Under the pieces are notes generated by a model that saw only the letters and a program-made list of their open reading frames with translations, ran no database searches and was not told the DNA's origin. Positions 26,310 through 40,842 of a stretch of DNA of 64,000 bases are shown here, piece by piece. The stretch lies in sequence record NC_010105.1. One strand, 5' to 3'. Each line of letters begins with the position of its first letter. Positions within the stretch are counted from its first letter, which is position 1. Source of the DNA: Escherichia phage JS98. The position numbers were made by a program, and so were the translations under genes.

Positions 26310-26609
26310 TTAGAAAGAACCAGAACCTTTAATTGTGTTCTGGCGACCTTTATTTTCCAATTCGGAGTGGTCGATTTCGTATGCTTGGGCTACACCAAAG
26401 GCTTTTTTAACTTTAGCTAAAGAGCCTTTAGATGTAACAATATTAAAAGTATTACCTTTAGTAAAATCAACCAAATCCACTTGTACGCCCTGTTTACCGA
26501 GGCTTGCTACAATAGCATCAACATATTCTTGGTCTAAGGTGCCTTGGACACCTATTTGGAATGCTTTAGGAGCTTTGGCTTCTGTAATAAATTCTTGATA
26601 AGTTTTCAT
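26310..26609 (-). CDS. internal-protein-like (capsid-targeted) protein
   Basis: N-terminal MKTYQEFITEA matches the T4 internal-protein capsid-targeting leader. Confidence 0.5.
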   Translation of the reverse strand: MKTYQEFITEAKAPKAFQIGVQGTLDQEYVDAIVASLGKQGVQVDLVDFTKGNTFNIVTSKGSLAKVKKAFGVAQAYEIDHSELENKGRQNTIKGSGSF

Positions 26610-26651
26610 ATTATTCCTTAAGTTGATAGAAGTATTCTATCACGGATTTAA

Positions 26652-27068
26652 TTAAGCGTAAATAGCCTTGCCGTAGTGTTTGTACCAGGTAGGACGTTGT
26701 GCAATTTTTTCGTCCAAACGAGCTTGTGAAATAGCGATAGAAGCTTCGTGAGGAACATAATCACCACGGAATTCCTGAGGAATATCACTAATGTCCTGGA
26801 CCGTAGTATCCTTGATATTAAAGCCACGTTTTAAACATTCGGCTATAAGCTCGATTTGACGCTTACGTAAAAATTCAAGCTTATCATAAAAGAATGTAAC
26901 GTGGCCTGTACCAAGGATAAAAGTAGGGCTGATTTTAAAATCACGAACACGTTTACCGTTAGCAACATGCTTACGAACTGCACCGAAAACACGTGGTAAT
27001 TCACGATATTCAGCCATTAAGTGTTGGTCAGCCAATTCAGATACTAAGGTAAGGTTGATACGAGTCAT
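26652..27068 (-). CDS. denV: endonuclease V (pyrimidine-dimer DNA glycosylase) DenV
   Basis: 138 aa, [41 protein letters not shown]..., near-identical to T4 DenV. Confidence 0.95.
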
Positions 27069-27086
27069 TTTTAATCTCCTGTAGTT

Positions 27087-27124
27087 GATAGGTCTATAGT
27101 ATCATGCCTACAGGAGAAGTAAAC
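27087..27124 (-). promoter_or_regulatory. conserved early-promoter cassette (PeSL-like); inverted repeat CTCCTGTAG/CTACAGGAG pairs the spacer with the denV RBS
   Basis: Minus-strand AAGTTTACTTCTCCTGTAGGCATGATACTATAGACCTATCAACTACAGGAGATTAAAAATG. Confidence 0.55.
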
Positions 27125-27523
27125 TTATTTGTAAGTTTTCATCCAATTCTTGAACAGAGCTGCAACGTCTTTCTCTTTAACGTTCAATTTAACGTCCAGC
27201 ATTTTGCCACCGGCGGCACGTGTCTGACGAATCTTGGCCGTACCGGTTTCGCCATTCCACTCAACATAATACTGCCCGGTGTTCATAGCGATACCATCGC
27301 CATAGTCTTCGTTCTTAGAAGTAGTGAATGCCAACTTCATGGTCTTAGAGACACGGGCCTGCATGCCTGTCTGCAGAGCGTTACGAACGCGAATAACCTG
27401 AGGAGTGGCCTGGGTTAGGTTCTCGTTCAGTTCTTCGGTGAACTCTTCTGATTCAAACATTGCCAAAAGTTCAGCGGGCGCCGGGATTACAGCTTCGGCG
27501 ATAAATTCATTATAAGTTTTCAT
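27125..27523 (-). CDS. ipII: internal protein II-like
   Basis: MKTYNEFIAEA leader; position between denV and ipIII as in T4. Confidence 0.6.
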   Translation of the reverse strand: MKTYNEFIAEAVIPAPAELLAMFESEEFTEELNENLTQATPQVIRVRNALQTGMQARVSKTMKLAFTTSKNEDYGDGIAMNTGQYYVEWNGETGTAKIRQTRAAGGKMLDVKLNVKEKDVAALFKNWMKTYK

Positions 27524-27563
27524 ATAGGTCCTTTAAAGGTAAATGTGTTTAAGTATAGGCTTA

Positions 27564-28160
27564 TTAATTACCACGGGCTGCATTAGCAACGGCGTAAGCG
27601 TACTGAATATTAGCGTCTTTAAACGTACCTTTAGAGGTATCTAGTTCTGCCTTAAAGCCGGCCTTAGTCATAACATCGGCAAATTCTTTACGGAAAGCCA
27701 TTGTATCAAGACCTTTCCATGCTGATTTATGCTTGGCAAATTCAAGACCAGCGAAGTTGACTGCTTTAGCCAATTTATTATCAATAGTCCATTTACCTGC
27801 TTTAGGTACAAATACCGGACCTTTCTGTTTAGAGAACAGTTTTAAATTCCAGCGACGAAGGTCGCCGTCGGCTTTAACAAAAGCTGCGTCCAAGTTACTA
27901 GCAACAACATCTTGAATATGGCCAAATTTAAGCCCATCAGCTTCAATATTTAGGTCGTTACGCCAGCGAAGTCCTTCCCAGGCGAAAGCTTTAAAGTCGG
28001 AAGCTTTTGTAGCTAAATACCGTTCAATAGGAGCTGTTTTAGCGTCAAAGCCGTTTCCTGGGTTGTCAACGCCGTTTCCTCGGTAGGTCCACTCATCTTT
28101 ATTAATGCCTTTGACCTTTCCTGCAGTAGCTTCGGCGATAAATTCTTTATACGTTTTCAT
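27564..28160 (-). CDS. ipIII: internal protein III-like
   Basis: MKTYKEFIAEA leader, 198 aa basic protein, position next to e as in T4. Confidence 0.6.
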   Translation of the reverse strand: MKTYKEFIAEATAGKVKGINKDEWTYRGNGVDNPGNGFDAKTAPIERYLATKASDFKAFAWEGLRWRNDLNIEADGLKFGHIQDVVASNLDAAFVKADGDLRRWNLKLFSKQKGPVFVPKAGKWTIDNKLAKAVNFAGLEFAKHKSAWKGLDTMAFRKEFADVMTKAGFKAELDTSKGTFKDANIQYAYAVANAARGN

Positions 28161-28209
28161 ACGGGTCCTTCAAATGTAAATATTTAATTAGTCTGTTCAA
28201 GTAACTGTA

Positions 28210-28241
28210 GATATACTATCACAATTCTAGGAGATGTAAAC
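28210..28241 (-). promoter_or_regulatory. early promoter (GTTTACA -35, TGataGTATAT -10) of the conserved family
   Basis: Minus-strand AGTTTACATCTCCTAGAATTGTGATAGTATATC upstream of ipIII. Confidence 0.45.
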
Positions 28242-28246
28242 TGCTT

Positions 28247-39325: not shown

Positions 39326-39603
39326 ATATTAATGTAATCAAGTTTAATAGAAGCAATTTTCAAAGGATTTTTAAAGATGTCATATTCGACCAACCCATTT
39401 TCATTTGCCGTATAAAAAGTAAAGTTAACAGAATTATAGCGTTGGCTGTTAACTTTGAGTTTAACATCGCTTGAACTACGGCCAATATTAACCTGTTGAA
39501 CATCAAGCACAGCATCTTTGCCGTAATTTCGAATCAACAACTCAGCTGCAACCTGATCGGATTTATAGCCATTCTCTGGATTAGTAACCTTAACGTATAA
39601 CAT
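39313..39603 (-). CDS. hypothetical protein (96 aa)
   Basis: Intact ORF. Confidence 0.4.
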   Translation of the reverse strand: MLYVKVTNPENGYKSDQVAAELLIRNYGKDAVLDVQQVNIGRSSSDVKLKVNSQRYNSVNFTFYTANENGLVEYDIFKNPLKIASIKLDYINMWPQ

Positions 39604-40005
39604 TTAACCCTCGTCTACAATAGTGTGGGTATTGGCATTAACAATCTGCCACCAGCCAAAACGATTAGAACCGTAAAGAGGCTTATTCTCGTTTTCTTTA
39701 ATGATATCGCGCAGTTCATCTTCAGAGAAGGCTTTAGCGATTAAATCAGTATACCCACCGCGTGGATAATAATTATCACCCGCAAACAAAAGGAAATTTA
39801 CCTTTCCGGAAGGAACATATGCTTCCTTAGGATACTTGTTTCCTGCGTGGTCGACAACTTCAATATAACGGTAAGGAATATCAGTACTTTCAACCCATTG
39901 CCATGCTGCTGCAGGGGATTCAAAAGCATCAACACCTAAACGATTATCTTCATCTTTAGACGGATTATTTTCGTAATCCGCATATACATAATATTCAACG
40001 TTCAT
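39604..40005 (-). CDS. hypothetical protein (133 aa)
   Basis: Intact ORF. Confidence 0.45.
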   Translation of the reverse strand: MNVEYYVYADYENNPSKDEDNRLGVDAFESPAAAWQWVESTDIPYRYIEVVDHAGNKYPKEAYVPSGKVNFLLFAGDNYYPRGGYTDLIAKAFSEDELRDIIKENENKPLYGSNRFGWWQIVNANTHTIVDEG

Positions 40006-40202
40006 TATTCACCTTTAGAGATTTTATCCATAACGAAAGAGATTGAACCAATTAAGAATGCCACTACTAAAGAGATTGTATTCTCGGAAGTTGTAAGCAA
40101 ATCCAACATGAATCCTGCAAACATACTAAAGCCAAAAGCAGTAACGGCGGTCAGTGCAGTAACATTTCTAATTAATTCACAACGTTTCATTTTATTCTCC
40201 AA
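40005..40202 (-). CDS. small membrane protein (65 aa)
   Basis: TM-like VTALTAVTAFGFSMFAGFML and LVVAFLIGSISFV. Confidence 0.4.
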   Translation of the reverse strand: MENKMKRCELIRNVTALTAVTAFGFSMFAGFMLDLLTTSENTISLVVAFLIGSISFVMDKISKGE

Positions 40203-40217
40203 TCACTCATTTGTTTT

Positions 40218-40257
40218 GATAGGGCTATAGTATCATCAACTAAAGCCCGTTGTAAAC
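40218..40257 (-). promoter_or_regulatory. conserved early-promoter cassette (PeSL-like, GGGCT variant)
   Basis: Minus-strand TTGTTTACAACGGGCTTTAGTTGATGATACTATAGCCCTATCAAAACAAATG. Confidence 0.5.
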
Positions 40258-40259
40258 AA

Positions 40260-40553
40260 TTATTTTGTAATTTCTTTGATTTTAGAAACTACTTTATCTT
40301 TGGTAAGACCGGAAAAAGTCTTATATTTTGTAAAGTGGATATCATCACCAAGATTAATATAATATTTCTTTTTAACCGTATTGAATGCTATACTAACAGG
40401 TTTACCATTTACTGTAATAGTAATTTGCTGAGCCTTATCAACATCACCTGAGCCAAAGGCTCTTTTAATATCGCTACTAATATCGGCCATAGCCGCTTTG
40501 TTAATGGAATACAAATCTGTCGATTCTTTGATAAATTCTTGATAAGTTTTCAT
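40260..40553 (-). CDS. ipI: internal protein I-like
   Basis: MKTYQEFIKES capsid-targeting leader, 97 aa, located next to 57B as ipI is in T4. Confidence 0.55.
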   Translation of the reverse strand: MKTYQEFIKESTDLYSINKAAMADISSDIKRAFGSGDVDKAQQITITVNGKPVSIAFNTVKKKYYINLGDDIHFTKYKTFSGLTKDKVVSKIKEITK

Positions 40554-40583
40554 TTTTTGTTTCCGTTAGGTTGGGTTTGTTTT

Positions 40584-40621
40584 GATAGGGCTATAGTATC
40601 ATGCCTATAGACCTTGTAAAC
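40584..40621 (-). promoter_or_regulatory. conserved early-promoter cassette (PeSL-like)
   Basis: Minus-strand GTTTACAAGGTCTATAGGCATGATACTATAGCCCTATCAAAACAAACCC. Confidence 0.5.
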
Positions 40622-40632
40622 ATCTTTTTAAA

Positions 40633-40842
40633 TTATTTTAACCATGAAGAATTTTCAGAGACCCAGCTATCTATATCTGATTGAGGGCCGAAGAAGTAGG
40701 CAACCCCATTAGATAACTCTCCCGAAAGCCAATTTATGCCTTTCAGGCTTTCTTTAAATTCTTCAGGAGTACAAGAAACCTCTATTGCCACCGAAGAGGC
40801 TGACTCCATTGCTTCTGTTAAAAATTCTTTGTATGATTTCAC
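40633..40842 (-). CDS. internal-protein-like small protein (69 aa)
   Basis: [11 protein letters not shown] leader variant. Confidence 0.45.

Follow-up and report, generated by a model that had tools for sequence, protein, structure and literature searches.

Escherichia phage JS98 (Dhakavirus), which has been studied as a therapeutic coliphage, carries six open reading frames (ORFs) beginning with the N-terminal leader that sorts internal proteins (Ips) into the prohead of phage T4, all of them within the 64,000-nucleotide stretch analyzed here and hereafter called the window (NC_010105.1, genome positions 32,001-96,000). We consider it likely, at a probability of about 0.8, that the six encode bona fide packaged Ips, with more confidence for the ipIII ortholog and for the member of the Ip7 family, and with less for the smallest product of 69 amino acids (aa). 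That they are packaged, cleaved and injected, and what they target, is what we infer in the following. The window is 100% identical to a 170,523-bp IMG/VR copy of the genome, and the nearest annotated record of the phage collection belongs to the sister Dhakavirus JS10 (96.9% identity to the window). Genes are referred to by the length of their products, with coordinates collected in Table 1, and homolog counts are out of 50,697 phage records.

Six open reading frames share the leader of T4 internal proteins

An earlier note on this DNA had listed six ORFs beginning MK[TS]Y.EF[IL].E[AS], with mature regions of 59 to 195 aa. The ORF listing and a six-frame motif scan return the same genes at the same positions, and the lengths computed after a cut at Glu10 agree. 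A start-codon-anchored scan of the window for.K[TS]Y.EF[IL].E yielded exactly these six ORFs and no match in any of 200 sequences simulated with a second-order Markov model. Relaxing the scan added two further ORFs (at 9183 and 14099), which were dismissed, both being without an [IL]xE site. The start codon is ATG in five of the genes and GTG in the 69-aa gene.

Mutagenesis of T4 IPIII assigned targeting chiefly to residues 4 and 7 and processing to residues 8 and 10; in T4, the ten N-terminal residues are enough for foreign proteins to be packaged (PMC9026906). The targeting determinants Tyr4 and Phe7 are kept in all six JS98 proteins, as are Ile or Leu at position 8 and Glu10, followed each time by Ala or Ser. 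Predicted sites for the prohead protease gp21, in the order of Table 1 and with the cut marked by an arrow, are ITE↓A, IAE↓A, IAE↓A, LNE↓S (plus LNE↓A at residues 13-16), IKE↓S and LTE↓A. Leader codons vary among the six genes (ACT, ACG or TCA; TAT or TAC; ATT, ATC, TTG or TTA) and therefore conservation acts on the protein. Gene 21 of JS98 lies outside the window, and protease and scaffold were compared via JS10, whose gp21 prohead protease and gp22 scaffold are 89% and 77% identical to those of T4, with gp67 and gp68 also present. The propeptide site of gp23, FLTE↓AEIGG, is identical in JS10 and T4, and the EFLTE↓A of the 69-aa leader reproduces it. With the key residues kept and a T4-type protease and scaffold present in the lineage, the reading of the leader as the T4 capsid-targeting sequence, put forward in the earlier note, is supported. 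The note's further statement that this is the leader of T4 IPI, IPII and IPIII alike applies to the latter two, which carry MKTYQEFIAE↓A in T4, and not to IPI; the leader of T4 IPI is a 19-residue variant, MKTFKEFTSTTTPVSTITE↓A, so that strictly IPII and IPIII alone fit the pattern.

Five of the genes map to the classical ip loci (denV-ipII-ipIII-e and trna.4-ipI-57B) or to their immediate vicinity, the 99-aa gene being found downstream of and beyond denV, and the 205-aa gene lies outside both. The first region reads vs.8, the 99-aa gene, denV, the 132-aa gene in the ipII slot, ipIII, e and nudE, on to e.6; the second leads from the 205-aa gene to three tRNA genes, trna.2-4, the 97-aa gene in the ipI slot, the 69-aa gene, 57B, 57A, 1 and 3. 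This order agrees with T4 (denV, ipII slot, ipIII, e, tRNA genes, trna.4, ipI slot, 57B, 57A). In the JS10 annotation the 198-aa gene alone bears an Ip name, ipIII, and the 99- and 132-aa genes count as hypothetical. Identical copies of the 97- and 69-aa ORFs exist in JS10 (L001 15481-15774 and 15855-16064), annotated in neither JS10 record. Exact JS98 protein accessions were matched by four of the six proteins, with none for the 97- and 69-aa sequences. Two of the six ORFs are thus unannotated in JS10 and, on exact-sequence accession match, apparently also in JS98.

One IpIII ortholog, one Ip7 member and four further families

The 198-aa protein aligns with T4 IPIII at 86% identity over 198 aligned positions (BLASTP, E 3e-128), falls into PHROG 5341 'internal virion protein' (E 2e-114) and exactly matches JS98 IpIII (ABX11099). 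Its gene occupies the T4 position, with e on one side and the ipII slot on the other, and we identify the protein by these matches as the IpIII ortholog. The 99-aa protein can likewise be assigned, from sequence and predicted structure, to the already named Ip7 family. It matches PHROG 2667 'internal head protein' (E 5e-43), has homologs in 282 phage records and is 47-52% identical to Ip7 proteins or homologs in phages WG01 and CF1, the leader being invariant across the family. The best BFVD match of its AlphaFold2 model (mean pLDDT confidence 74.6) is the 'Ip7 protein' of phage MX01 (E 3e-11, TM score 0.74); Foldseek searches of the PDB with this model returned generic ferredoxin/ACT-like folds only and no match to IPI*, the mature form of IPI.

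The 132-aa protein occupies the ipII slot, and its alignment with T4 IPII is limited to the leader, giving no homology to IPII. It belongs to PHROG 15461, where function is unassigned, and its family is found in 48 phage records (Dhakavirus as well as Klebsiella, Serratia and Erwinia phages), all labeled 'hypothetical'. A weak match to residues 189-275 of the cytosine methyltransferase M.HhaI (E 0.02) was taken as probably due to chance. The 97-aa gene of the ipI slot has the narrowest distribution with seven phage records; it is 100% identical in JS10 and MN04, and homologs in Edwardsiella and Yersinia phages share 32-38% identity. Compared profile to profile with IPI, this family aligned over 17 columns at 37% probability, which is no convincing match. 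The ratio of nonsynonymous to synonymous substitution rates (dN/dS), computed pairwise throughout against distant homologs with synonymous sites near saturation, is 0.29-0.46 for the 97-aa gene.

Homologs of the 69-aa protein (PHROG 23867) occur in 27 phage records at 53-99% identity, the one in WG01 beginning MKTYNEFLTEA, and dN/dS is 0.05 versus the EcS1 homolog. The GTG start of the gene overlaps the stop codon of 57B by 4 nt (GTGA). The 57B product (40839-41294), encoded directly upstream of the ipI slot, is annotated as an Acb1-like protein acting against CBASS (cyclic-oligonucleotide-based anti-phage signaling system) in some relatives and as an RNA ligase in others; the overlap suggests translational coupling of two anti-defense candidates.

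No search of Pfam, NCBIfam or PADLOC gave anything above threshold for any of the six proteins, four of which belong to PHROGs of unassigned function, and sequence searches of solved structures with the 99-, 132-, 198-, 205- and 97-aa proteins returned no meaningful match. BLASTP against T4 IPI yielded no significant match for any of the six. Among the six, and in comparison with T4 IPI and IPII, similarity ends after the leader in every pair except that of the IPIII ortholog, and when the 97-aa, Ip7 (99-aa) and IPI families were compared profile to profile, the leader alone aligned with confidence. A reading of the set as T4 IPI-III orthologs plus degraded duplicates was therefore ruled out at the available sensitivity, pairwise and profile similarity being restricted to the leader. 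The divergence of the mature regions, already remarked upon in the earlier note, thus takes the form of one ortholog (of IPIII) and five proteins unrelated to T4 IPI, IPII and IPIII beyond the leader. Homologs in 7 to 282 phage records and dN/dS values of 0.05-0.46 across the tested genes indicate that the six ORFs are real genes, and that the 132-, 205-, 97- and 69-aa families are under purifying selection in other Tevenvirinae; none of these four families is named or annotated as an Ip in any record examined.

A leader-bearing family at a third locus

The 205-aa gene is located between the tRNA cluster and e.6/e.8. This locus is shared by Dhakavirus, Mosigvirus (JS09), Kanagawavirus, Karamvirus and Marfavirus, the gene always being labeled 'hypothetical', and the family is represented in 137 phage records with a dN/dS of 0.12-0.22. 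Its leader in JS98 reads MKTYNEFLNE↓SVLNE↓A, and the site that is invariant in the family is [IL]-x-Glu15↓Ala16, not Glu10, recalling the long leader of T4 IPI. Leader positions 2-4 are variable within the family, with N-termini MKTY, MYTF, MLKF and MLNF. An AlphaFold2 model (mean pLDDT 74.6) places one helical domain at residues 20-72 and another at 119-203, with a Pro/Ala/Lys-rich linker between them in which residues 74-109 are disordered; Foldseek searches of the PDB with it found generic helical hairpins only and no informative match. A profile search among 1.84 billion cluster representatives with the family retrieved 17 proteins, all of the same narrow phage-type family. Distant relatives (P0131, P0135, P0137 and P0138) keep the leader and the Pro/Ala/Lys-rich linker, with either the N- or the C-terminal domain being different, and this replacement of one domain suggests domain swapping within the family.

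The gene is missing from JS10, where JS98 carries ~1.1 kb extra comprising the 205-aa gene and a 92-aa ORF. This second ORF (36344-36622, minus strand) has its own early promoter and no leader, is present in JS98 and not in JS10, and gave no family match. Tentatively, the 205-aa protein could represent an unrecognized class of packaged and injected proteins at a fixed third locus in at least five Tevenvirinae genera, and the leader may be the label of dozens of effector families unrelated to one another, some of them in distant environmental T4-like phages, a proposal that we rate as possible rather than probable. If true, a search for the leader would provide a ready catalog of injected proteins, some of them directed against defenses beyond type IV restriction.

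The leader in related phages and environmental sequences

We estimated how unusual six such genes are in a scan of IMG/VR, using a degenerate DNA pattern for ATG-MKTYxEF[LIVM]xE in which position 11 was left free. Among the matches listed, complete T4-like genomes contain two to five strict matches each. JS98 has five, the 69-aa gene escaping the pattern by its MKS sequence and GTG start, and several other phages listed also have five, whereas T4 has two strict matches plus IPI. JS98 would therefore be placed at the upper end of the listed range and is not exceptional by this count. In this sample at least 124 unique leader-bearing ORFs (at least 40 aa) fall into at least 56 BLAST-defined families of mature regions, some up to several hundred residues long. 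At position 11, unconstrained by the pattern, Ala or Ser is found in 85 of the 124 sequences among the matches listed (69%). These counts characterize the leader as a portable label preceding unrelated mature regions. On environmental contigs, at least 27 of 60 leader loci carry distant homologs of T4 core genes (30-55% at the aa level; L019-L132), and on one contig both leader loci (L096, L097) also carry homologs of gp21 and gp22, so that the leader may extend well beyond Tevenvirinae.

Gene exchange and transcription signals at the ip loci

Even among Dhakaviruses, the ipI slot is filled in different ways. JS98, JS10 and MN04 carry the 69-aa gene together with the 97-aa gene; in dhabil the 69-aa gene is accompanied by a true IPI ortholog with the longer leader, in WG01 by a 73-aa ORF (negative in the leader scan), Ip9 and Ip7, and in UP19 by a 74-aa Ip and an Ip9-like gene. 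Together with the JS98/JS10 difference at the 205-aa locus, this pattern of gene content identifies the leader-bearing genes as accessory and varying between close relatives.

The junctions of the ~1.1-kb JS98/JS10 indel lie at a terminator and at copies of a conserved early-promoter element. This element, with the consensus GATACTATAGNCCTATCAA within TTTACA-N16-TACTAT, occurs 10 times in the window versus 0.07 expected, all on the minus strand; the sites span 15826-40600 and include 27085-27103, 36632-36650, 40216-40234 and 40582-40600. Two of its copies bracket the 97-aa gene as direct repeats, with a 26-nt stretch, ATGATACTATAGCCCTATCAAAACAA, being identical in both.

Late transcription signals are distributed unevenly over the six genes (Table 1). 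In all five other phages examined, orthologs of the 205-aa gene are preceded by the late-promoter sequence TATAAATA, or a version with one mismatch, 33-43 nt upstream and after a stem-loop. For the first ip region, the minus strand showed no terminator-like site from 28766 to 26310, and the late promoter of e is the likely source of read-through transcription that would reach the ipIII ortholog, the 132-aa gene, denV and the 99-aa gene. T4 ipI, ipII and ipIII have the same early promoter directly upstream and no TATAAATA within 130 nt.

Table 1 Leader-bearing genes of JS98 and nearby transcription signals (positions in the window; arrow, predicted cleavage; pI, isoelectric point)
Feature	Position	Strand	Description
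99-aa gene	26310-26609	-	N-terminus MKTYQEFITEA; predicted mature 89 aa, pI 9.0
132-aa gene	27125-27523	-	N-terminus MKTYNEFIAEA; predicted mature 122 aa, pI 8.2
198-aa gene (ipIII ortholog)	27564-28160	-	N-terminus MKTYKEFIAEA; predicted mature 188 aa, pI 9.6
205-aa gene	36731-37348	-	N-terminus MKTYNEFLNES; predicted mature 195 aa if cut at Glu10
97-aa gene	40260-40553	-	N-terminus MKTYQEFIKES; predicted mature 87 aa, pI 9.6
69-aa gene	40633-40842	-	GTG start, Ser at position 3, EFLTE↓A; predicted mature 59 aa, pI 4.1
Early- or middle-type promoter TTTACG-N17-TAGAAT with TG	26634..26662	-	Upstream of 99-aa gene
Early-type promoter TTTACA-N16-TAGTAT with TG	28213..28240	-	Upstream of ipIII ortholog; T4 ipIII has an equivalent
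Late promoter TATAAATA	28759..28766	-	Upstream of gene e; T4 has late promoters at the same place
Early-promoter copy	36643..36670	-	Between 205-aa gene and ORF 36344-36622; aligns with the single promoter retained by JS10 at the indel
Stem-loop terminator	36707..36728	-	Directly downstream of 205-aa gene; symmetric hairpin AAAGGAGAC...GTCTCCTTT, on the minus strand then TTTTAGGGGG
Late promoter TATAAATA	37377..37384	-	T4-type, 36 nt upstream of 205-aa gene
Stem-loop terminator GGCCC...GGGCC plus T run	37391..37412	-	Closes the upstream gene and precedes the late promoter; kept in JS10 at the deletion junction
Second early-promoter copy	40227..40256	-	Directly downstream of 97-aa gene
Early promoter TTTACA-N16-TACTAT with TG	40593..40620	-	T4-type, upstream of 97-aa gene; core GATACTATAGCCCTATCAA at 40582-40600

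Elsewhere in the window, five small ORFs (74, 69, 65, 93 and 96 aa) arranged in tandem on the minus strand at 33048-34290 encode proteins with similar tails (...YPSSC, ...FWFSSSMSC, ...SWVSSSYEC, ...GWVSSSSEC and ...AWVSSSAMC). The five appear to be paralogs whose shared C-terminal motif is Trp-Ser-Ser-Ser-x-x-Cys.

Proposed function and alternative explanations

In the mechanism that we propose, the ten-residue leader would bind each precursor to the gp22 scaffolding core during prohead assembly and would be removed by gp21 after Glu10, the 205-aa protein probably being cut after Glu15. The mature proteins would remain in the head with the DNA, be co-injected and act in the cell before any phage gene expression, and proteins acting at this stage would decide the survival of the incoming DNA against the first line of host defense. 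They are most likely stoichiometric and highly specific inhibitors of nucleases that attack modified-cytosine phage DNA (GmrSD- or McrBC-like type IV enzymes), each Ip being matched to a different enzyme variant. The 198-aa IpIII ortholog should accordingly inhibit the ECOR17-type GmrS1/GmrSD2 system, and the 132-, 205-, 97- and 69-aa proteins would present unrelated mature domains on the same address label. Hypervariable slots bracketed by repeated promoter and terminator elements would let related phages swap such genes. The conserved residues and machinery, the locus synteny of five genes together with their promoter layout, and purifying selection all agree with what the earlier note proposed, namely that JS98 encodes extra internal proteins which may serve as injected anti-defense effectors.

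Functional precedents come from T4 and a relative. Silas et al. (2025) showed that each of T4 Ip1, Ip2 and Ip3 blocks a GmrSD-type type IV enzyme of its own, with no cross-protection, and predict that the remaining proteins of the two ip loci target further GmrSD-type variants (PMC12373910). The enzymes linked include CT596 GmrSD for IPI* and BrxU/GmrSD of ECOR21 for Ip2. A further leader-bearing protein from the ipI slot, Bas37_0260 (77 aa), inhibits McrBC (bioRxiv 10.1101/2025.11.20.689424, HIDEN-SEQ). The earlier note had credited at least IPI* with anti-restriction activity, which is correct for IPI* and outdated in its reserve, all three T4 Ips being type IV inhibitors (PMC12373910). Given these four precedents (Ip1-3 and Bas37_0260), we regard it as an evenly balanced proposition that the four uncharacterized JS98 proteins are specific inhibitors of type IV restriction enzymes.

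Several points weigh against this interpretation. Neither virion proteomics nor mapped N-termini of JS98 or a relative turned up in the reachable literature, nor did a targeting test of leaders of the MLKF, MYTF or MLNF type. In the four non-orthologous proteins (132, 205, 97 and 69 aa) no recognizable nuclease-binding fold or domain was found, and the 69-aa protein is acidic, with Ser as its third residue and GTG as the start codon of its gene. The 205-aa gene is the only one under a dedicated late promoter, and late synthesis from the other five would need read-through; as an argument against packaging this point was dropped, since the T4 ip genes share the early-promoter layout and missing late promoters are therefore not evidence against packaging. 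Finally, JS10 encodes the dCTPase gp56 and a-gt.2 to a-gt.5, but neither an alpha- nor a beta-glucosyltransferase is annotated in it. DNA of this lineage may thus carry a modification other than glucosyl-hydroxymethylcytosine (hmC), and the relevant nucleases may recognize a different sugar and differ from the restriction enzymes studied with T4. Between uvsX and gene 43, JS10 has seven hypothetical genes (21868-26721; L134 7869-12722) at the position of the proposed arabinosyl-hmC module of RB69.

Three other explanations deserve consideration. The proteins could be packaged and injected and target other immune systems or host physiology instead of type IV enzymes, which we hold to be possible but doubtful. 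Just four Ips have known targets, and all four inhibit type IV restriction; the mature domains described here are unrelated to T4 Ip1 and Ip2, and the leader is found on at least 56 unrelated families, including some of several hundred residues. The ipI slot adjoins 57B with its Acb1-like annotation in some phages, the 69-aa gene overlaps the 57B stop, and its small, acidic product (pI 4.1) is unlike the other five, yet the six sequences give no pointer to another system, and Silas et al. argue that the accessory proteins of the ip loci all target GmrSD-type variants (PMC12373910). It is less probable still that the proteins are structural or physicochemical head contents, that is, basic DNA-associated proteins that condense, stabilize or eject the genome with no specific target. 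Five of the six predicted mature proteins are indeed basic (pI 8.2-9.6), the exception being the smallest; the Pro/Ala/Lys-rich linker of the 205-aa protein resembles histone H1 and TonB spacers; its gene is conserved at one locus in five genera under a dedicated late promoter, like that of a virion component; and the T4 head contains ~1000 Ip molecules embedded in the DNA (PMC3012670). A core structural role is a poor fit to genes that are non-essential and turn over rapidly between close relatives, and each of the three T4 Ips has a specific enzyme target (PMC12373910).

We consider it very improbable that the shared N-terminus is a translation-initiation or recombination module of ordinary cytoplasmic early proteins. 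Such a module could account for the early promoters directly upstream of three genes, for the restriction of an own late promoter to the 205-aa gene and for the repeated promoter elements, which show that regulatory cassettes are shuffled along with these genes. The proven packaged Ips of T4, however, share exactly this early-promoter layout, and what is conserved is the amino-acid sequence, the codons being varied. Moreover, Ala or Ser follows the leader in 69% of the at least 124 leader ORFs, as a protease site requires, and in T4 the first ten residues by themselves package foreign proteins (PMC9026906). Under the preferred interpretation of the six proteins as packaged Ips, the practical interest lies in specificity, as each Ip characterized so far disables one specific restriction enzyme variant. 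The six JS98 Ips, four of them without an assigned target, would be candidates for explaining or engineering host range and baits for new modification-dependent nucleases.

Relation to known systems

The JS98 genes resemble those of T4 IPI-III in the leader and [IL]xE↓A motif, in two genomic slots, in promoter layout and in encoding small, mostly basic, non-essential and variable proteins. They differ in number (six versus three), in that the ipII and ipI slots hold unrelated proteins, and in that one gene (205 aa) is found at a third locus under its own late promoter. T-even relatives are already on record as containing 'many more Ips, at least 10 reported' (PMC12373910; PMC3012670), and polymorphic leader-bearing Ips (Ip4 upwards, e.g., Ip7 and Ip9) go back to Repoila et al. 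1994, as cited in PMC3012670, PMC12373910 and PMC4122927. As these many Ips are already in the literature, the interpretation offered in the earlier note corresponds to the current view of the field. Like the members of that polymorphic set, the JS98 proteins are unrelated small proteins that share just the leader and are exchanged at the ip loci; unlike them, the 132-, 205-, 97- and 69-aa families are unnamed as Ips in the records examined. Bas37_0260 is similarly a small leader-bearing protein of the ipI slot with no homology to Ip1-3, and extends Ip targets beyond GmrSD; compared by length only, its 77 aa differ from all six JS98 proteins.

The Dar proteins of phage P1 act against type I restriction. 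Like Ips, they travel in the capsid and enter the cell along with the DNA, which they protect from restriction (PMC12810830); they show no sequence relationship to the proteins described here and have another packaging route and other targets. For T4-like genomes, shuffling of promoter/stem-loop cassettes has been proposed and tied to earlier observations at the IP locus (PMC4122927). The JS98 arrangement is alike in that TTTAC[AG]-N16-17-TAnnAT elements flank variable genes and are found at the junctions where close relatives differ by an indel. It is unlike it in that the JS98 element has its own extended consensus, GATACTATAGNCCTATCAA, and in that two different terminators, and not two copies of one element, delimit the 205-aa gene. 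The concept is therefore not new: Ips and their leader have been an established paradigm since the 1990s, and the generalization of their anti-restriction role followed in 2025. To this JS98 adds members, the new details, which are modest, being two unannotated ORFs, four uncharacterized members and one conserved family at a third locus.

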